A DNA stretch of 32,000 nucleotides, from the NCBI RefSeq assembly GCF_003086415.1, contig NZ_QEFP02000007.1:1-32000 (forward strand), given 5' to 3'. The notes beneath the pieces were generated by a model that did no database searches, was not told where the DNA came from, and saw nothing but the letters and a program-made list of their open reading frames with translations. The DNA is from Candidatus Nanobsidianus stetteri (GTDB lineage Archaea > Nanobdellota > Nanobdellia > Nanobdellales > Nanobdellaceae). The translations under genes and the position numbers were made by a program. Every line of letters starts with the position of its first letter. Position 1 is the first letter of the stretch. Of the stretch, positions 2,529 to 29,965 are shown piece by piece.

Positions 2529-3344
2529 CTATTCTATTAGTTCATATCCTTCAATACCCTTTTCATTCATAATCCTTTTCCATTCTAACATTCTTTCTTG
2601 TCTTTTTACTTCTAGTTCACAAACTTTATCTATTATTTTTAAATTCTGTACACCCTTTATTTCAATTTTCTCTCCTCCTTCTATTGATATATTTAAATCT
2701 TGTCTAATAGTTCCCAATCCTCTTTTTACTTTCCCAGTCAATCTTAATATTAATCCAATATATTCAGCTACCTCTTTTACTTCTTTTGGATCCATTAAAT
2801 CTGGACCTGTAGATATTTCTATTAATGGTATTCCCAACCTATCTAATCTATAAATTATATAATCTTCTCCTTCTTCAATTTTTCTTGCAGCGTCTTCTTC
2901 AATACAAATTGTTCCTATACTTATTTTTTTATCTTTATATTTTAATTCTCCATTTAATGATAATAATAATGTTCTTTGAAAACCTGAAGTATTTGATCCA
3001 TCTACAACAATTTTTCTCATAACTTGTAAAACCTTTGGAATATACATATTAAAAAATGTTGAAATTAGTATTCCAAATTTTAATGCTTCAATATTAATTA
3101 AATGTGGTGGTTCTTCATCAAGTTCAACTAGGCAAGAATAATCTTTAGAATATTCATATATATATTTTTTATCCTTCATTGTCTCATATTCAGCAGCAAT
3201 ATCCTTTTTTCCAGTTTCACTTAATGTTGCTCTCAATTTTCTTTCAATTCTATAATCATATTTATCACTTAAATTTGTAGGACAATTACAAAATAGTTTT
3301 TCTTTTGTATCAATTTGTTGATGTATTTCTAATCCAGCAATCAT
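2529..3344 (-). CDS. gatE: Glu-tRNA(Gln) amidotransferase subunit E, N-terminal catalytic (cradle) domain only (271 aa; I recall the full-length protein as about 600+ aa).
   Basis: Contains the GatE/GatB_N hallmarks MIAGLEIHQQIDTKEKLFCNCP, CLVELDEEPPH, MRKIVVDGSNTSGFQRT, IEEDAARKI, YRLDRLGIPLIEISTGP, KRGLGTIRQDLNISI and EIKGVQNL..ELEVKRQ. The ORF stops about 25 aa after the E..RQ motif. Confidence 0.8.
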   Translation of the reverse strand: MIAGLEIHQQIDTKEKLFCNCPTNLSDKYDYRIERKLRATLSETGKKDIAAEYETMKDKKYIYEYSKDYSCLVELDEEPPHLINIEALKFGILISTFFNMYIPKVLQVMRKIVVDGSNTSGFQRTLLLSLNGELKYKDKKISIGTICIEEDAARKIEEGEDYIIYRLDRLGIPLIEISTGPDLMDPKEVKEVAEYIGLILRLTGKVKRGLGTIRQDLNISIEGGEKIEIKGVQNLKIIDKVCELEVKRQERMLEWKRIMNEKGIEGYELIE

Positions 3345-11801: not shown

Positions 11802-12197
11802 ATGCTAGATAGGTTTTTTGAATTATTTGTAATTGTCCTAGTAATATTTTTTATTACTTTATTATTAATGGAGAAAGTTTCTTATATTTATAATATTAAT
11901 GAAAAATATCAAATTATATATAATCAATTTATGGATGGGAGAGTTTTAATTAAAGAAATTACAGAGCAATATACTAATAATATTTGTAATTTGACATCAA
12001 ATAATTTTGATCCAAGTATAATGGATAATTTAGCAAGTTTTCCATATGAAATAATATATGAAAACTTAAGTAATACTAGCCAAGAGTATATTTTTAGTAA
12101 TGATAATATAACAAATATGCAAAATAATTATATAGAATTTAATAGGGTTTGTTATTATGATGGCTCATTATTCTTAGTTAGTGTATTAGTTCAATGA
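11802..12197 (+). CDS. Small pilin-like membrane-anchored protein, hypothetical.
   Basis: MLDRFFELFVIVLVIFFITLLLM is a single N-terminal hydrophobic helix, followed by an Asn-rich body with N-x-S/T sequons. It is the first of three overlapping ORFs; its stop overlaps the next start in ATGA. Confidence 0.4.
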   Translation: MLDRFFELFVIVLVIFFITLLLMEKVSYIYNINEKYQIIYNQFMDGRVLIKEITEQYTNNICNLTSNNFDPSIMDNLASFPYEIIYENLSNTSQEYIFSNDNITNMQNNYIEFNRVCYYDGSLFLVSVLVQ

Positions 12198-12538
12198 GAT
12201 CTTTTAGTATATCAATATTTATTGAATTAGTAGTTGTAATAATTGTTTTATATTTTATTTTAACTTCAACATATTATAGTAGTTTCTATATTAGAGGATA
12301 TAATAAAGAAGATCTATATGCATCATTGATATCAATAAATTATATGGATTTAAACAATACACAACAACTAAATAATAGTTTATATCAAATTGTTACAAAT
12401 ATTTTACCATATTATTATGTTGAAATAAATGGGCAGGTTGCATTTAATAATATAAATTTAAGTGAAGCAGAACAGGGAATTGAAACATTTTATATTATTA
12501 ATGGCTCAGTAGATTATGTAGATATATATTGGAAATGA
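12194..12538 (+). CDS. Small pilin-like membrane-anchored protein, hypothetical.
   Basis: The N-terminus MRSFSISIFIELVVVIIVLYFIL has the same M-R-S head plus hydrophobic helix as the ORFs at 1575-2033 and 12529-12813. It overlaps both neighbours. Confidence 0.4.
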   Translation: MRSFSISIFIELVVVIIVLYFILTSTYYSSFYIRGYNKEDLYASLISINYMDLNNTQQLNNSLYQIVTNILPYYYVEINGQVAFNNINLSEAEQGIETFYIINGSVDYVDIYWK

Positions 12539-12813
12539 GATCTCAATTTATTCTATTATATTTAGTTTTAATATTATTTATAACATTATACTTTATTTCA
12601 AATTTACAAAACAATTTCTATTATCAACCAAATATTGGTAAATATATTGCAGAAGATTTTTATGTTAAATTATTATTATATCCAAATTATTCTTCCACCA
12701 TAAATCAAACATATTATAATATCTGTTTAGAAGAGAATATAATATGCTATGATAATGGAACAAATATAATAGTTATAACTCAAAATTCTGAATATATATT
12801 AAATAACCCATAG
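12529..12813 (+). CDS. Small pilin-like membrane-anchored protein, hypothetical.
   Basis: The N-terminus is MEMRSQFILLYLVLILFITLYFI. It overlaps the upstream ORF by 10 nt. The last base of its TAG stop is nucleotide 1 of tRNA-Glu. Confidence 0.4.
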   Translation: MEMRSQFILLYLVLILFITLYFISNLQNNFYYQPNIGKYIAEDFYVKLLLYPNYSSTINQTYYNICLEENIICYDNGTNIIVITQNSEYILNNP

Positions 12814-12887
12814 CCCCCATCGTCTAGTCCGGTCCAGGATACGGGGTCCTCATCCCCGAGACCCGGGTTCAAATCCCGGTGGGGGCA
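12813..12887 (+). tRNA. tRNA-Glu (anticodon CUC), contiguous with no intron.
   Basis: Folds as GCCCCCA UC GUCU AGUCCGGUCCA GGAU A CGGGG UCCUCAU CCCCG AGAC CCGGG UUCAAAU CCCGG UGGGGGC A. The D-arm and 4-nt variable loop are as in archaeal tRNA-Glu. The anticodon loop reads U32 C33 C34 U35 C36 A37 U38, so position 33 is C rather than the canonical U. CCA is not encoded. Confidence 0.85.
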
Positions 12888-23157: not shown

Positions 23158-23337
23158 AATAATTAATAATATAATTGATAGTTGGTAAGAATTTGATATT
23201 AATATTGGTATTGGACCTATTAATATTAATCCGGCGAATTTTGTATTAGAAGAATTTGATAATGAGTATATAAATAATAAAATAATTGAAATAAATAGAA
23301 AAATAATTGATAGAATCAAAAATATGTTGCTATTCAT
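23101..23337 (-). CDS. Small two-helix membrane protein, possibly DUF131/TIGR00304 family.
   Basis: Two hydrophobic helices flank GLILIGPIPILISNS, which matches my recollection of the DUF131 signature (G.i.iGPiPI..g). It converges on and overlaps the HAD gene's 3' end by 57 nt. Confidence 0.5.
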   Translation of the reverse strand: MNSNIFLILSIIFLFISIILLFIYSLSNSSNTKFAGLILIGPIPILISNSYQLSIILLIILLIIILIILIIFFYKVII

Positions 23338-23602
23338 TTAACTTTAATTTATAAAATTTCGAATGGCCAAAATGAATTATTAAATCAAATCCATATTTAT
23401 CTAAATATATTGGTATATCACATCCACCAAAATCTGATCCAAACCAAATATATATTTCAATATCTTTATATTTTTCCTTTATTTTATCATATATTTCCTT
23501 TGAATATGGTTTTAATCCATCCGGAAATTGTAATAATATTTTTTTATATTTCTTTTTATCTAATGTTTCGAATATTTTATCTAATTCGAAATCTATCTCC
23601 AT
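23330..23602 (-). CDS. dph2: Diphthamide synthesis protein Dph2 (2-(3-amino-3-carboxypropyl)histidine synthase), N-terminal domain only (90 aa; I recall the full-length protein as about 330 aa).
   Basis: KKILLQFPDGLKPYSKEIYDKIKEKY.DIEIYIWFGSDFGGCDIPIYLDKYGFDLIIHFGHS matches the Dph2 domain-1 pattern (v.LQfPeGLk....ia..l......v.i..d..yGaCd.....a...gaDl.vHyGHs), including the first cluster-ligand Cys. The ORF ends 9 codons after GHS. Confidence 0.75.
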   Translation of the reverse strand: MEIDFELDKIFETLDKKKYKKILLQFPDGLKPYSKEIYDKIKEKYKDIEIYIWFGSDFGGCDIPIYLDKYGFDLIIHFGHSKFYKLKLNE

Positions 23603-24348
23603 TTAAATATTTTTAATATATTATCTATAAAGCTATTCCTAACCTTTAATTCCTTTCCAGTCATTTTTTCTGCAATTTTTATTATATCTCTAGAAGCTAT
23701 AGAATTTATATTATAATCTATTAAAGGTACACCTTTATTCATTGAAATTTGTACATTTTCATCATAATGAATTATCCCTATTATTTTCTTTTTAAAAAAT
23801 TTTTCAGCATTTACATAATCTATATCCTTCTTTATCTTATTTAAAACAATCCCTAAGGTTTTTATATCTAAGTTATCTAATACTTTCGTAACCCTATAAG
23901 AATCAAACATTGCAGATTTTTCATAGTTTGTTATAATTATAACCTCTTCAGAAGCTTTTAATGCTTCCAAAGCTTCCTTACCAATTCCAGCAGCAGAATC
24001 TATAATAATATAATCAAAATCATCATATATTTTCATTATTCCATTATGTAATTTTTCAGTAGAAATGTATATTAAATCTTTTATATCTAAACTTCCAGGA
24101 ATTATATAAAAATTTTCTTCATATTCCTTTATACAGTCATTTATGTCAATTTCCCCCCTTAAAAATTTATGTATATTGTTATTTTCATTACCCAATCCGA
24201 GATTTATTGATACATTTGGTGTAGTTAGATTAAAGTCAATTAATAATGTTTTAAAATTTAATAATGAGAGAGCTCTTGATAAATTTATAGAAAAGAAAGT
24301 TTTTCCTACTCCACCTTTCCCAGAAGATATTGTATATACTTTTGCCAT
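23593..24348 (-). CDS. minD: MinD/ParA-family P-loop ATPase.
   Basis: Has the deviant Walker A SSGKGGVGKTFFSINLS, IIIDSAAGIG, and VLNKI. The length and layout are typical of archaeal MinD-like proteins. Its start overlaps the upstream ORF's stop in TAATG. Confidence 0.85.
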   Translation of the reverse strand: MAKVYTISSGKGGVGKTFFSINLSRALSLLNFKTLLIDFNLTTPNVSINLGLGNENNNIHKFLRGEIDINDCIKEYEENFYIIPGSLDIKDLIYISTEKLHNGIMKIYDDFDYIIIDSAAGIGKEALEALKASEEVIIITNYEKSAMFDSYRVTKVLDNLDIKTLGIVLNKIKKDIDYVNAEKFFKKKIIGIIHYDENVQISMNKGVPLIDYNINSIASRDIIKIAEKMTGKELKVRNSFIDNILKIFKWR

Positions 24349-24800
24349 TATATATATTTACTAATAATTGTAGAAAATTTTTTAACGGATTCTGCAATAT
24401 CTTTTAGTATCTTTATATTTATTTCAAATTCTTCTCCACTTAATGTCCTAAATTTTATAACCATACTTTTTCTATATTCATTTATTATCCTTGCATCAGA
24501 ATTTAAAGCAAGCTTTAATAGTTTATAATACTTTAAAGATTCTTCAAGTTCCTTATCCTTTGTAATTTCAATTATTTTTTTATACCTTTTAATTGGACTA
24601 TCTGGAATTTCATCAATCATTTTATTTTCATATAATTTCTTAAAAAATAATTCAATTGCATAGTCATAATATTCAATAACTGCTTTTATAAAGCTTCTAA
24701 CAGTTTCCAATCCCTTATTATTTTTCAATGAAACATTAAATATATGTAAAACCTCTTTATATCTTCTGTTATATTCTAAATTTTCTTCTAAATTAGGCAT
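24348..24800 (-). CDS. Hypothetical all-helical protein (150 aa), translationally coupled to the MinD-like ATPase.
   Basis: The ORF has coding-like composition and no family motif I can name. Its stop overlaps the MinD ATG. Confidence 0.5.
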   Translation of the reverse strand: MPNLEENLEYNRRYKEVLHIFNVSLKNNKGLETVRSFIKAVIEYYDYAIELFFKKLYENKMIDEIPDSPIKRYKKIIEITKDKELEESLKYYKLLKLALNSDARIINEYRKSMVIKFRTLSGEEFEINIKILKDIAESVKKFSTIISKYI

Positions 24801-24946
24801 GATATATAGATATTTGCAATATATACTAAAGCCGCGAAAACAATTATAAATATTATTATTTTATTTCTATTTAATCTTATTTTTGATTTCTCTTTTCCAA
24901 ACTTATATAATCCAAGATATGTAAATATTGGTAATTGGTCGGGCAT
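24788..24946 (-). CDS. Possible small single-pass membrane protein (52 aa). Speculative.
   Basis: My translation is MPDQLPIFTYLGLYKFGKEKSKIRLNRNKIIIFIIVFAALVYIANIYISCLI. Its stop overlaps the start of the 150-aa ORF by 13 nt. The only support is position and one hydrophobic helix. Confidence 0.25.
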   Translation of the reverse strand: MPDQLPIFTYLGLYKFGKEKSKIRLNRNKIIIFIIVFAALVYIANIYISCLI

Positions 24947-24948
24947 AA

Positions 24949-24956
24949 TTTATATA
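24949..24956 (+). promoter_or_regulatory. Candidate TATA box (TTTATATA) for the RNase P RNA gene.
   Basis: A consensus archaeal TATA octamer lies with 22 nt between it and the first base (24979) of the terminal helix of the G+C-rich RNA. This spacing would start transcription at or near the helix. Confidence 0.4.
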
Positions 24957-24978
24957 ATTAGAAGAAATATATAAAAAA

Positions 24979-25208
24979 GTGGCCGTAGGAAGGTCTGCTT
25001 ACCGATAAGCCACCGAGGAATCGGAGGGGGAAACCCCTGGCTACATAATAAGAAATCACGGACATATATCCGATGAAGATGAAGAGTTAATACCCGGAGG
25101 TAACTCTGGGTAAACTCGGAGAGGATATATGCACCTTGAGAAGTATGTCCTGGCGGTACAAGGCCTGTCCGCTTAGAAAAATATATACTAAAAGCAGCTT
25201 ACGGCCAC
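24979..25208 (+). ncRNA. rnpB: RNase P RNA, unusually compact (~230 nt).
   Basis: It is a G+C-rich island in AT-rich DNA. A terminal helix GUGGCCGU/ACGGCCAC closes it. Moving 5' to 3', it matches conserved RNase P elements in the same order as E. coli M1 RNA. AGGAAGGUCUGC resembles CR-I GAGGAAAGUCCGGGC. GAUAAGCCA resembles CAUAGGGCA. AGCCA[CCGAGGAAUCGG][AGGGGGAAACCCCU]UGGCU resembles the P7/P8/P9 cruciform with a GAAA loop (M1: GGGGGGGAAACCCAC). CUGGGUAAACUCGGAG resembles GGUAAACUCCACC. ACUAAAAGCAGCUUAC resembles CR-V ACAGAAcccGGCUUAu. CUGCU and AGCAG can form P4. Confidence 0.75.
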
Positions 25209-25209
25209 A

Positions 25210-26895
25210 CTAATAACTTTTTCCTATATATACATAATATTTTGCATCTTCATTACAAAATATACATTTTTTATTTTTTGCATCTTCAGGTATAATATCA
25301 GTTCCCCTTACATCTAATGAATATCTTTCTTTAATATTCTTTGCGCATTCTTCTCTCATACAGAATGGAACCTTAAATGCTAAATTTTTATTTAAATTAT
25401 TTTCTAGATCTTTTAAATTATCTACTTTTAATATTTTATTTTCAAAATATTTTCTTGACCTTTCTTTTAGATCTTTATCATATTCAATAATTAACCTCTC
25501 TAATTCATTTAATAAATTTTCCAATTTTACTTCGTAATCTTTTGCTTTACTATTATATTGCCTTACAGATATTGTAACTGTATTTTTTTCTAATTCTCTT
25601 TTACCAATAGATATTCTAAATGGTACTCCTAATAATTCATATTGGTTAAATTTCCATCCAGGACTTTTTGTATCATCTTTATCAATTCTTACTCTATACT
25701 TTTCCTTTAATAAATTATATACATTCTCACAATATTCTAATATCTTGTTTTTTTCATCTTCAGAATAATATATTGGTATAATTATTATTTGAACTTTAGA
25801 TATTTCAAAAGGTAATATTAAACCTTTATTATCCCCATGTATTGAAATTACTGCACTTAATGTTCTCATAGATATTCCAAAAGATGTTTGCCATGCAAAT
25901 TTTTTATTAATTAATTTATTTTCATTAAATTTATTTTTAATTATATTATTTATTTTGTTTATTAAATCTTTATTATCTTCAGATATTTCTCCATTAAATT
26001 CTATATTTTCTTCATATGATTTAATTAATTCTCTATTATTATTATATAATCTTATTTTTATTTTATTTTCAACAATTTCTATTTCATATCTATAATTATC
26101 TTCATTAAATGCCTCAAATTTATTTTTATCTATTTTTATAAATGGATGATCATCTTCAAAAATAATATTAAATGCTTTAGAAAAATTCCTTCCTAATAAA
26201 TGTGTAGTTCCAATTTGTAAAAATCTTCCATCTGGTAATATAGTATCTGCAGCAAATGTATAATCTGCTCCGGCAAATTTATCCCAATCAGGTCTCCTTA
26301 CCCATATATGTGGTAATGATAAATGGTCCCAAAAAACTTTAGAATAAATTTCAATAGATTTTTTTATCATCCTTTCAGCATCATCTAAATCTTTATGTAC
26401 GGTATGAGCCTCATTCCATAAAATCTCTCTTCCCCTGATTAATGGTTTTGTTGCTTTTGTTTCATATCTATATACTGTATTTGTCATATAAGTTAACAAA
26501 GGTAAGTCTCTATAAGATCTTATCCATAAAGAAAACATATAATACATTTCAGTTTCAGATGTTGGTCTTAATATATATCTTATATCTTTTTCTTCTTCTA
26601 TTGGTTTTGATGGAGTAACATAAAATACTTCAGATTCGAATCCTTTTATATGTTCACTTTCCCTTTTAAATATTTCATATGGAATTAATATTGGAAACCA
26701 ATATGGTTCAAACCCATTTTTTTCTAATTCACCTTCTAAAATGTTCAATATTTTTCTAATTGCGAAATATCCATTTGGGTAATAAATAGGCATTCCTTTT
26801 ATAGGATATCTATCATCAATAATCTCGGAAACTCTTACTATATTGTTATACCATTCAGAGAAATTGGAATTCTTATCTAAATTACTTTCTCTCAT
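25210..26895 (-). CDS. proS: Prolyl-tRNA synthetase (archaeal/eukaryotic type) with an ~80-aa insertion in the catalytic domain.
   Basis: FSEWYNNIV, YPIKGMPIYYPNGY, LRPTSET, RYETKATKPLIRGREILWNEAHT, LQIGTTHLLGRNFSKAF, WQTSFGIS.R and IHGDNKGLILP are present. A C-terminal Zn-binding domain ends in ..KCIFCNEDAKYYVYIGKSY. It is 561 aa, whereas I recall about 480 aa as typical. Confidence 0.95.
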   Translation of the reverse strand: MRESNLDKNSNFSEWYNNIVRVSEIIDDRYPIKGMPIYYPNGYFAIRKILNILEGELEKNGFEPYWFPILIPYEIFKRESEHIKGFESEVFYVTPSKPIEEEKDIRYILRPTSETEMYYMFSLWIRSYRDLPLLTYMTNTVYRYETKATKPLIRGREILWNEAHTVHKDLDDAERMIKKSIEIYSKVFWDHLSLPHIWVRRPDWDKFAGADYTFAADTILPDGRFLQIGTTHLLGRNFSKAFNIIFEDDHPFIKIDKNKFEAFNEDNYRYEIEIVENKIKIRLYNNNRELIKSYEENIEFNGEISEDNKDLINKINNIIKNKFNENKLINKKFAWQTSFGISMRTLSAVISIHGDNKGLILPFEISKVQIIIIPIYYSEDEKNKILEYCENVYNLLKEKYRVRIDKDDTKSPGWKFNQYELLGVPFRISIGKRELEKNTVTISVRQYNSKAKDYEVKLENLLNELERLIIEYDKDLKERSRKYFENKILKVDNLKDLENNLNKNLAFKVPFCMREECAKNIKERYSLDVRGTDIIPEDAKNKKCIFCNEDAKYYVYIGKSY

Positions 26896-27000: not shown

Positions 27001-27028
27001 GGGGGATGAGAGGGAATATATAGTCTCA
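27001..27028 (+). other. 5' strand of the 23S rRNA processing stem.
   Basis: GAGGGAAUAUAUAGUCUCA (27010-27028) is perfectly complementary to 29941-29959. GGGG (27002-27005) can also pair with CCCC (29962-29965) across an asymmetric internal loop (AUGA opposite GA). Confidence 0.7.
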
Positions 27029-29940
27029 AGAACCCGCCCGGTGGATGCCTGGGCTCGGAAGCCGAAGAAGGGCGCGGTAAGCTGCGAAAAGCTGGAGGGA
27101 GGTGCATGCAACCGTTGATCTCCAGATCCCCGAATGGGATATCCTGCCGAAAGGCATCCCGTAAGGGAGGGGAACGCGGGGAAGGGAAACATCTTAGTAC
27201 CCGCAGGAATAAAAAACAATTTGTGATTTCCTGAGTAGGGGCGACCGAAAGGGAAGGAGCCTAAACCGAATCCTCTAAAGTAATTTAGAGGAGATGTGGG
27301 GTAAAGGAACGGGAGCTTCCCGTTATTATATTCTCAGAACTCCGGTGGAAGTCCGGGGCCGTAGAGGGTGACAGCCCCGTATGGGGATATAATAACGGGA
27401 TTTCCCGTTTCCGGAGTACCGGCGGTTGGATTTCCGTCGGGAATTTGGGGGAAACTAGCCCCCAAGGCTAAATACTCTCCGAGTCCGATAGCGTATTAGT
27501 AGGGCGACCGAAAGGTGAAAAGAACCCTTGGTAGGGGGTGAAAAGAGCCTGAAACCGGGCGGGGATTGTCTGGTAGGGCTAGTTAAGCACCTTATCTGGG
27601 AAAATCTGGTGACAGATGAGTACCAGATAGGGTGCTAGCTAGTTCTACCGTGAGTTTTGAAGAACTTGCGGGGGAGTATACCCGAGTGGCGAGGTTAAGG
27701 TTTATACCGAAGCCATAGGGAAACCGAAAGCCCGCAACCTGGTTTCCAGGTGAGGGGCGCCGTCCCATAAGGGCGGTTTAGTCACTCGGGTATGACCGGA
27801 AACCGGGCGATCTACCCCGGGGCAGGGCGAAGCGGGGTTTCCCGTGGAGGCCCGAAGAGGTGGGGCGTATCTCTCTCATGACCTCGGGGTAGAGGTGAAA
27901 AGCCACTCGGGCCCGGTCATAGCCGGTCCCCGCCGAAACTGACCCCAGCCAGGTCTCGGGTTAGGATCCCTATGGTGTAGAGAGACGGATTCTGTACGGG
28001 TTTCCGTACGGAGTCCAACTCCGAAGCCATAGGGTCCGTAACCCGGGAAACGGGGATTGCGGGAAAGCCGCAATTCCGAGACGGGAACAACCGAGACCGA
28101 GGTTAAGGCCCCAAAGTGCTGGCTGAACGATTTTGAAGGAGTCTGTCCCCTAAGACATCGGGGATGTGGGCCTAATAGTGGCTATCATCTAAGGAGTGTG
28201 TAACAACTCACCCGACGAGGGGATAGGCTCCGAAAACGGACGGGTCTAAGCCAGCCGCCGAGACCTCGGTCCGCTGGTACTGCCAGCGTGAGGTAGGCGG
28301 GCGTCCCGATGGCCTAGAAGGGTTCCTGAAAGGGAGCCTGGAGCCGTCGGGAATGAAGATCCCCGCGGTAGTAAGAATCAGACGGGTGAGAATCCCGTTG
28401 GCCGAAGGGGGAAAGGTTTCCCAGGCAATGAAGATCAGCCTGGGGTTAGTCGATCCTAATCCAGGCTCCGAGTGGAGTCTGGAGAAAGGGAAAGGGGTTA
28501 ATATTCCCCTACCGCTCCGATAGATGCGGTAACGCAACATCCTTTCCCGACCCGGAAGGCTAGGCATACACGGGGGTGGGGTAAAACTCACTTACCGTGC
28601 TAAGGGGGATAGGACCGGGGAGTGCCGTCATGGCGAGAACCGGTCTAAACCCTGATGGGCCCGAAAGGGTTATGCCGAGGCCTTCCGGCAATGAAAAGGG
28701 AAAGGATGCGATTCGGAGCGATCGTACCGAAATCCAGCATAGGTCCCCTGGGTGAGCAGCCTAAGGCCGTGGGGGTCAAGCCGGTCCAGGGAACTTGGCA
28801 AATTGGTCCCGTAACTTCGGGAGAAGGGATGCCTGCGGTGCAGACCGCAGGTCGCAGTGACAAGGGCGGGCGGACTGTTTACCAAAAACATAGCTCCCAG
28901 CAAGCCCGAAAGGGTTTGTACTGGGGGTGACGTCTGCTCAGCACCGGTATCTGAATCCCCCGTTCAAGGGGGGTAAGGACCGGTAAACGGCGGGGGTAAC
29001 TCTGACCCTCTTAAGGTAGCGTAATGCCTTGCCAGTTAAATGCTGGCTCTGCGAACGACGTAACTAGCCCGCCACTGTCCCGGGCCGGCGCCCCCTGAAA
29101 AGCTATCCTGGTGAGAAGGCCAGGGACTTCCGATGGGTAAAAAAGACCCCGTGAAGCTTAACCGCAGCCTGTTGTTGCTCTGAAGAACCTGGTGTGTAGG
29201 GTAGCGGGGAGCAATGAATTCCTGCCGCTAGGTAGGAAGGATGCGACGATGAAACACCCGCCTCCAGGTTCTTCAGGGCTAACCCGAAAGGGGACAGCGG
29301 CAGGTGGGCGGTTTGGCTGGGGCGGCACCTTGCCGAAAAGATATCGGCAGGGTCCATAAGGTCAGCTCAGGCGGGTCAGGAATCCGCCGTAGAGGACAAG
29401 GCCAAAAGCTGGCCTGACTGTGCCCTGACCATCAAGGGGCACAGGGGGGAAACCCGGGCCTAGCGAACCCCGTACTCTCACTAGTGGGGGTACGGGCTGG
29501 CGGAAAAGCTACTCCGGGGGTAACAGCGCCGTCGCGGGCGAGAGCCCCCATTGACCCCGCGGTTTGCGACATCGATGTCGTCTCTCCCCATCCTGGTGGT
29601 GCAGAAGCCGCCAAGGGTGGGGGTGTCCACCCATTAAAGGGGATCGTGAGATGGGTTCAGAACGCCGCGAGGCAGTTCGGTTATAACTGTCGGAAGTGCT
29701 GGCTGCCTGAGGGGAAGGTCCGCCTAGTACGAAAGGAACGGCGGGCCGGGGCCTCTGGTCTACGGGCTGTCCGAGAAGGGCATGCCCGGTAGCTACGCCC
29801 TAGGGGATAAGCCCTGAAAGCATCTAAGGGCGAAGCCCTCCTCAAAAATAGGCAGCCGTTAAGGGGTCGGATAAAAGATCCGACTCAGAGCGGCGGTGTA
29901 AGCTCCGAAAAGGAGTTCAGCCGACCGCTTGAAGTTCCCG
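27029..29940 (+). rRNA. rrl: 23S (LSU) ribosomal RNA, complete and stand-alone. Ends are approximate.
   Basis: The 5' region has CCCGGUGGAUGCCUGGGC. The GTPase-associated centre is at ~28158-28215. The PTC region has GGGGUAACAG...CAUCGAUGUCG...GGGUUCAGAACGCCGCGAGGCAGUUCGGU. The sarcin-ricin loop is at 29726-29739. Length is about 2.9 kb, with no intron-sized insert. It is bracketed by a long complementary stem. All track ORFs inside it are artefacts. Confidence 0.95.
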
Positions 29941-29965
29941 TGAGACTATATATTCCCTCGACCCC
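29941..29965 (+). other. 3' strand of the 23S rRNA processing stem.
   Basis: UGAGACUAUAUAUUCCCUC (29941-29959) plus GA and CCCC pair with 27001-27028. Confidence 0.7.

Follow-up and report, generated by a model that had tools for sequence, protein, structure and literature searches.

The 32,000-nucleotide (nt) stretch of DNA analysed here, positions 1 to 32,000 of contig NZ_QEFP02000007.1 and referred to below as the window, carries at positions 24979-25208 of its plus strand a gene of 230 nt which, with a probability of about 0.9, encodes the catalytic RNA subunit of ribonuclease P (RNase P) of a hot-spring Nanopusillaceae archaeon near Nanobsidianus stetteri Nst1. The gene corresponds to the reduced RNase P RNA already known from the Nanopusillaceae, in which the P2 helix and the P3 hairpin are missing. 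Its assignment is based on a covariance-model match, on covariation among 31 homologous sequences, and on conserved signals that delimit the gene on both sides.

Identity of the gene and its homologues

The locus stands out as an island of high G+C content, with 42-47% G+C in segment 24979-25208 and 18-27% in the DNA around it, and the minimum free energy (MFE) fold of the RNA reaches -88.7 kcal/mol (z = -6.8 relative to shuffled controls). The initial annotation of this DNA had placed a G+C-rich RNA gene of about 230 nt between the MinD operon and proS, 22 nt past a promoter box, and had read it as RNase P RNA. The position holds exactly, and the identity is borne out by a full-length match to the Rfam family RF00373 (RNaseP_arch), by the presence of the conserved regions (CR) CR-I to CR-V in order, and by helices that covary in the register of the model. 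The match was obtained in a permissive scan (E-value up to 10) of region 24900-25280 with all 4227 Rfam families; it covers 24975-25212 and model positions 1-288 with 74.3 bits (E 6.6e-21). No other family does better than E 2.5, and those of the signal recognition particle (SRP) RNA gave no match in this region under the same permissive threshold.

A default Rfam scan of the window reported only the 23S rRNA and three tRNAs, and passed over the RNase P RNA because its score lies below the curated gathering score of RF00373 (84 bits; clan CL00002). Another copy of the Nanopusillus/Nanobsidianus type, L001 (1948-2185), also remains under this cut-off with 70.3 bits. The YN1-type copies score 85.5-86.6 bits, the range shared by the syntenic orthologues L002, L003, and L004, whose prolyl-tRNA synthetase (ProRS) has 71-73% identity to that of the window.

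The gene is flanked by the MinD/ParA ATPase operon and, in convergent orientation, by proS (25210-26895, minus strand), which encodes ProRS with the Pfam domains tRNA-synt_2b, HGTP_anticodon, and ProRS-C_1. An exact-sequence look-up of this ProRS gave no entry, and it was compared through homologues; its closest relatives are found in Nanopusillaceae, and it is 95% identical to that of Nst1. The order proS, RNase P RNA, an open reading frame (ORF) of 150 amino acids (aa), and MinD is kept down to a ProRS identity of 59%.

Homologues were collected with a pattern built from CR-I, the kink-turn (K-turn) strand, and CR-V, which was scanned against species-representative genomes and JGI metagenomes. 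It matched 15 times in the former, including Nanopusillus acidilobi 7A, Nanobsidianus stetteri Nst1, and the cultured strain YN1, and 25 times in the latter. Removal of duplicates and non-homologues left 31 distinct sequences from Nanopusillaceae genomes and hot-spring metagenomes, on which all conservation counts given below are based. The window RNA and the Nst1 copy (L018, APJZ01000002) differ at 6 of 234 nt (97.4% identity), and the identity to that of N. acidilobi 7A (L012) is 94.0%; both are encoded at the same locus, and identity falls to 65.8% with the most distant of the 31 members. Two further matches, L028 (88-296, minus strand) and L045 (133-341, minus strand), come from related marine-sediment contigs. 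They were rejected as non-homologous because their putative P4 strands are non-complementary, and they give no RNase P match at E <= 1e-4; here the pattern was probably matched by chance, in conserved and possibly coding sequence. In the case of Nanoclepta minutus, no RNase P RNA was found near proS, a negative that holds for this locus (L005) and that the pattern scan does not extend to the rest of the genome.

Covariation and the missing helices

An explicit structure model was written on the window sequence, and its pairs were counted over the alignment of the 31 sequences. Standard pairs fill 99.1% of the cells, a proportion that is only 31-43% when the partners are slid by 1-3 columns. 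Changes on both sides are seen in 33 of the 63 pairs, compared with a mean of 9.0 in shuffled alignments, and none of 500 shuffles reaches the observed values. The helices that covary include P5, P8, P9, P11, and all four sections of P12 (P12a-d). The counts support a single fold shared by the 31 homologues, in which P1 abuts CR-I and CR-V directly. It is hardly credible, in view of these data, that the gene encodes another structured RNA (SRP RNA, for instance, or one specific to the lineage) with a chance likeness to RNase P RNA: the sub-threshold Rfam score is all that speaks for it, whereas the five conserved regions occur in order and P1, P4, P5, and P7-P12 covary in the RNase P register.

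The alignment of this RNase P RNA to RF00373 deletes model positions ~12-35, corresponding to the distal part of P1/P2 and the P3 hairpin, together with the 6-nt 3' strand of P2, and the P15-17 insert is reduced from 37 nt in the model to 1 nt. In all 31 sequences, a single variable nt separates P1 from the GGAA of CR-I, and four nt, AUAU, stand between CR-IV and CR-V in place of the 3' strand of P2. The segment AUAUAUAC (25181-25188), located between CR-IV and CR-V, is invariant in 31 of 31 sequences even at an overall identity of 66%; its outer bases are accounted for by the CR-IV/CR-V consensus, and its middle four (AUAU) are not. The terminal helix is P1 itself, both strands of P2 have been lost along with P3, P6, and P16/17, and P15 is left as a stub of 2 bp. 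The RNA had at first been described as having a fused terminal helix and no P3. The absence of P3 stands, on the strength of the model deletion, the covariation, and the tight boundaries, but the helix is not a fusion of P1 and P2, since P1 is kept and P2 deleted.

The topology of the molecule changes as a result of these losses. As P2 is absent, P4 crosses no helix and is no longer a pseudoknot, and because P6 is absent as well, the RNA is free of pseudoknots. The unconstrained MFE fold has P1 and P4 in one nested stack, and in the structure model P1, P4, and P5 form a continuous nested stack.

Three small DPANN-type RNase P RNAs of 241-269 nt serve as outgroups: L044 (6665-6933, plus strand), L015 (7567-7807, plus strand; from an 'Anstonellales' metagenome-assembled genome and without P9), and L030 (1069-1327, minus strand; without P8). 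They belong to the same Rfam family, and their P15-17 region has likewise collapsed, to a short hairpin, but unlike the window RNA they still have P2 and a P3 hairpin of 5 bp. Within the set of sequences compared here, only Nanopusillaceae have lost P2/P3.

Boundaries of the gene

The TATA-type promoter box TTTATATA (24949-24956, plus strand) ends 22 nt before G24979. In 31 of 31 loci, a TT(A/T)TATA box precedes the first P1 nt by 29-36 nt, and the stretch in between consists of A and T only and is unconserved. From the usual archaeal spacing between TATA box and start site, transcription would begin at, or within a few nt of, G24979. At the other end, the stop codon of proS lies 1 nt beyond P1, and the 3' flank is therefore the coding end of proS. 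A T5 tract (25218-25222, plus strand), located 9 nt past P1 and inside the end of the convergent proS, is a possible archaeal oligo-T terminator at which transcription may stop; the tract is found in most lineages and is absent from YN1 and KM4331-08.

These boundaries bear on the possibility that P2 and P3 are not missing at all, and that the mature RNA is longer than 230 nt and receives them from its flanks. The small size of the gene compared with the usual archaeal one would fit this idea. It is nonetheless very unlikely, given that the conserved TATA box and the proS stop codon bracket the gene so tightly that the flanks are unable to supply these helices. In addition, P2 would require an internal 3' strand between CR-IV and CR-V, where there are only the four invariant nt. 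The RNA without P2 and P3 is thus the form whose elements are described in the following.

Elements along the RNA

All the elements are encoded on the plus strand. The 5' strand of P1, GUGGCCGU (24979-24986), pairs with its 3' strand, ACGGCCAC (25201-25208), in a helix of 8 bp that is 100% paired in the 31 sequences. Three of its pairs have changed on both sides (U-A to C-G, G-C to C-G, and C-G to U-A), as exemplified by L010 and L014. Positions 24987-24998 comprise the linker nt, J1/4, and CR-I with the 5' strand of P4 (A GGA AGG-U-CUGC, with the bulged U24994), and AGGAAGGUCUGC starts at 24987. The helix P4 has 7 bp, is 98.6% paired, and shows changes on both sides in 3 of the 7 pairs (CUGC/GCAG, CCAC/GUGG, CCGC/GCGG). 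Its 3' strand is part of CR-V and is followed by the 3' strand of P1 with no nt in between. Both contacts of the terminal helix had been noted at the outset, that is, a CR-I-like element one nt past the 8-bp helix and a CR-V-like ACUAAAAGCAGCUUAC abutting its 3' strand, and the two are confirmed.

The 5' strands of P5 (25000-25003) and P7 (25009-25012), joined by J5/7, occupy 25000-25012 and are assigned by covariation: P5 is 100% paired with 1 compensatory pair, and P7 has changed on both sides in 4 of 4 pairs. The cruciform P7-P10 continues at 25013-25038 with the P8 hairpin (GGAA loop) and the P9 hairpin (GAAA loop), also supported by covariation, with changes on both sides in 3 of 5 and 4 of 5 pairs, respectively, and with GNRA-type loops in most relatives. 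P9 is the GGGGGAAACCCC hairpin (25026-25037) that can be read in the sequence. The 5' strands of P10 and P11 and the CR-II-like J11/12 (AAGAAAU) follow at 25039-25059; P11 has changed on both sides in 3 of 4 pairs, and the near-invariant AGAAAU aligns with the ACAGAAA of the RF00373 model.

The P12 arm (25060-25135) contains an overlapping double K-turn, formed by GAUGAAGAUGAA (25072-25083) opposite GGAGAG (25118-25123), and a GNRA-capped distal hairpin (25093-25110). The string GGGUAAACUCGGAG, initially taken for a conserved region, turned out to combine the 3' side of the distal P12 with the 3' strand of the K-turn module. The motif matches the overlapping KT2/KT3 double K-turn of RNAs of types A and M, which binds two copies of L7Ae and is part of a P12 that is also capped by a GNRA loop (Lai 2017). 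A binding site for L7Ae is predicted here.

Positions 25136-25158 hold the CR-III-like UUGAGAA, which aligns with CR-III of the RF00373 model, and then the 3' strands of P11, P10, P7, and P5, whose partners covary. They are followed at 25159-25170 by the linker J5/15 (CAA, 3 nt), a candidate A-anchor, and by the P15 stub (GG, a loop of 4-5 nt, and CC), the two G-C pairs of which show no variation in the 31 sequences. In M. jannaschii, the central A of the 3-nt linker between P5 and P15 stacks on the tRNA pair 1-72 (Wan 2019). The last internal segment (25171-25200) consists of CR-IV (GCUUAGAAAAAU), which aligns with CR-IV of the RF00373 model, the four nt AUAU, and CR-V with the 3' strand of P4 (ACUAAAAGCAGCUU).

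Several of these elements are invariant or near-invariant in the 31 sequences, namely GGAA and the bulged U (CR-I/P4), ACUAAA-G, and UUGA-AA (CR-III), and full invariance is observed for the As of the P5-P15 linker (A25160, A25161) and for AUGAA..AUGAA / GGAGA of P12. The hallmarks of an RNase P RNA are present: P4 with its bulged U, CR-II and CR-III in the P7-P12 domain, CR-IV, and the A-anchor linker. The specificity domain (S-domain) is complete, with the P7-P10 cruciform, P10/11, and CR-II/CR-III, and with a predicted T-loop anchor. All the parts known to touch the substrate and the catalytic metals are kept.

Comparison with known RNase P RNAs

The window RNA belongs to none of the types A, M, and T. 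Type A RNAs have a P15-P16-P17 arm with the L15 loop, the P6 pseudoknot, and P2/P3, all of which are absent or collapsed here. With type M, the window RNA shares the absence of P16/17, of the P6 pseudoknot, and of the substrate-binding loop L15, as well as the presence of the P12 double K-turn. However, type M RNAs keep P2/P3 and typically have no P8, whereas the window RNA has a covarying P8 (3 of 5 pairs) and neither P2 nor P3. The type T RNAs of Thermoproteaceae such as Pyrobaculum are miniaturised too, and in both cases a missing RNA module goes along with a missing or undetectable protein, which for type T are the S-domain and Rpp21. The module that was lost is nevertheless the opposite one, since type T RNAs are without the S-domain and keep P3 and a 3-bp P2; the own score of the type T model is not visible in the Rfam scan, in which overlapping matches within a clan are suppressed.

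Outside of Archaea, Rpm1 from the mitochondria of Saccharomyces cerevisiae and other ascomycetes works with the unrelated protein Rpm2. This RNA is organellar, extremely A+U-rich, and has most of its S-domain gone, in contrast to the nanoarchaeal RNA, which is encoded in a cellular genome and has an archaeal S-domain and K-turns. The two are alike in that Rpm1 is also without P2/P3 and its P4 is not a pseudoknot, and it is on this ground that the 2026 work pairs them (PMC12974513, supporting information (SI)).

The same gene, at the same locus and with the same loss of P2/P3, has been described for Nst1 and other Nanopusillaceae (PMC3655853, PMC4919917, PMC12974513 SI Fig. S12), and the window copy is only a sequence variant of the Nst1 RNA from a different strain or species. 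The RNA of Nst1 was found with Infernal, and was reported to be considerably shorter than other archaeal RNase P RNAs and not foldable into a typical structure (PMC3655853). It was read as a partial degradation, in contrast to N. equitans, where the loss is complete (Podar et al. 2013, PMC3655853), and the idea of an intermediate toward the RNase P-less N. equitans was already advanced for Nst1 in that work. A remodelling of the catalytic domain was later suggested (Samanta et al. 2016, PMC4919917). Finally, 'Coevolution of RNase P and the ribosome' (PNAS 2026, PMC12974513) places the deletion of P3 and P2 within Nanopusillaceae, models the N. stetteri RNA and compares it with the yeast mitochondrial Rpm1 in its SI (Fig. 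S12), and concludes that P2, though important, can be dispensed with and that P4 counts as an element of secondary structure. The absence of P2/P3 observed here is a correct rediscovery of what is already known, the shortened RNA having been reported in 2013 and the loss of P2/P3 published in 2026. What is added is the covariation test on 31 sequences, the boundaries set by the promoter and proS, the assignment of the double K-turn and the A-anchor, and the outgroups that keep P2/P3.

Protein partners and function

P2 and P3 are present in the archaeal types A, M, and even T, and in the only archaeal holoenzyme structure they are the platform for Pop5 and for the dimer contacts of Rpp30. In this Methanocaldococcus holoenzyme, Pop5 sits on the P2/P3 junction and grips CR-IV, and Rpp30 keeps the dimer together through its contacts with the P2-P3 stems of the two RNAs (Wan 2019). 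As Pop5 and Rpp30 are seated there in Methanocaldococcus, the arm missing from the window RNA corresponds to the Pop5-Rpp30 platform. The loss of the P2-P3 arm would be consistent with two earlier reports on Nst1, in which p21 and p29 are present alongside a p30 described as 'divergent' (Podar et al. 2013, PMC3655853) and POP5 was not found (Samanta et al. 2016, PMC4919917).

The retention of the S-domain, the P12 double K-turn, CR-I to CR-V, the bulged U, and the A-anchor linker makes a working enzyme likely. A decaying relic, with RNase P function lost or taken over as in N. equitans, is improbable. Such a state would agree with the absence of RNase P from this sister lineage, with the description of the Nst1 complex as 'partially degraded' (Podar et al. 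2013, PMC3655853), and with the score under the Rfam cut-off. Against this, the gene has persisted, with its promoter box and its location, in lineages with as little as 59% ProRS identity and 66% RNA identity, and 33 compensatory pairs together with invariant catalytic and substrate-contact nt are the mark of purifying selection acting on an RNA that folds and works. Moreover, Nst1 has kept three or four of the RNase P proteins.

The functional RNase P RNA would be transcribed from its own TATA promoter, with a start at or next to the first nt of P1. It would then bind L7Ae at the K-turns, Rpp21-Rpp29 at the S-domain, and the divergent Rpp30, and the resulting particle would remove short 5' leaders from tRNA precursors. 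The spacing of promoter boxes weakly suggests that such leaders exist in this organism. The first T of the box TTTATATAA lies 30 nt before the RNase P RNA and 36 nt before tRNA-Ala, and a TTTAAATT box is found 35 nt before tRNA-Leu, which would leave leaders of ~5-6 nt (~6 nt for tRNA-Ala). For tRNA-Glu, no unambiguous promoter box was seen. A survey of leader lengths in 33 related loci found 3 tRNAs, too few for this purpose, and the tRNAs of the window were used instead.

As an observation on its own, the first base of tRNA-Glu (12813-12887, plus strand) coincides with the final base of the stop codon of a 94-aa ORF, the last in a string of three ORFs (11802-12813) without functional assignment; ORF and tRNA together span 12529-12887 (plus strand). 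This tRNA may be co-transcribed with the upstream ORFs and, in that case, need 5' processing.

Besides the Rfam score of 74.3 bits, below the gathering score of 84, some other points weigh against the assignment of the window gene to a working RNase P RNA of the fold described above. P10 and the 2-bp P15 stub never vary, and are thus unproven by covariation. No RNase P protein is encoded in the 32-kb window, and the protein complement is taken from the literature; the small unannotated ORFs of the window, considered as cryptic RNase P proteins, gave no match to Pfam and NCBIfam at permissive thresholds. Lastly, the argument from leader lengths is built on three tRNA genes, in a genome that is AT-rich and in which strings resembling a TATA box occur often.

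Without its P2-P3 arm, the RNA is predicted to form a remodelled holoenzyme, possibly a monomeric one. A more specific proposal, put forward only tentatively and rather doubtful at present, is that the loss of the arm is coupled to a true loss of Pop5 and of the (Pop5-Rpp30)2 dimer, resulting in a monomeric RNase P with 3-4 proteins whose active site would be stabilised by the AUAU linker and the divergent Rpp30. Much less likely is that the Nanopusillaceae-specific 150-aa protein encoded next to the RNA gene acts as a replacement RNase P subunit.

Other features of the window

The 150-aa ORF (24348-24800, minus strand) is transcribed away from the RNase P RNA gene and overlaps the beginning of MinD/ParA. 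Its family is found in Nanopusillaceae only (13 clusters) and has an invariant N-terminal block, YN(R/K)(R/K)xKEVLHIxNVSLKNNKGLE, with an R-x5-H spacing. The AlphaFold model of the protein is confident (predicted local distance difference test, pLDDT, 89.4), and the protein gave no significant match in sequence or fold, and nothing like an RNase P protein; the best geometric likeness, a weak one, is to HEPN toxins (template modelling (TM) score 0.56).

Two ORFs of the window look like split protein genes, as far as their profile matches tell. One of them (23330-23602, minus strand; 90 aa), in the MinD/ParA operon, matches the diphthamide-synthase profile no further than its first 58 positions, and the other (2529-3344, minus strand; 271 aa) holds only the N-terminal catalytic domain of GatB/GatE (GatB_N). 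A split Dph2 is listed for Nst1 (Podar et al. 2013, PMC3655853).

The rRNA operon is split up. The 23S rRNA gene (27017-29952, plus strand) stands alone, and in relatives (L002 1-982, 6944-9875) the 3' end of the 16S rRNA lies ~6 kb from the 23S rRNA, with genes for tRNA-guanine transglycosylase, S19, and archaellum/type IV secretion proteins in between. The window also holds an archaeal flagellin and scattered ribosomal-protein genes. Finally, the Pfam profile of Ocr, a phage DNA mimic, matches a 114-aa ORF (12194-12538, plus strand) below its threshold (E 7.9e-4, 20.3 bits, cut-off 25), a similarity that probably reflects mere acidic composition.

Significance

The Rfam gathering score skips the RNase P RNAs of the Nanopusillus/Nanobsidianus type, which reach 70-74 bits, and the gene may therefore stay unannotated in new genomes of this group. 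N. acidilobi and strain YN1 are in culture, which makes the question of the protein partners directly testable. If the arm and Pop5 were indeed lost together, this would mirror the type T enzymes, where the S-domain and Rpp21 were lost together, and would provide a natural minimal system for studying the contribution of Pop5 and P2/P3. An RNase P RNA that is encoded in a cellular genome and that has a full substrate-recognition domain, yet no P2-P3 platform, implies that P2 is dispensable and that the P4 'pseudoknot' can become an ordinary helix.

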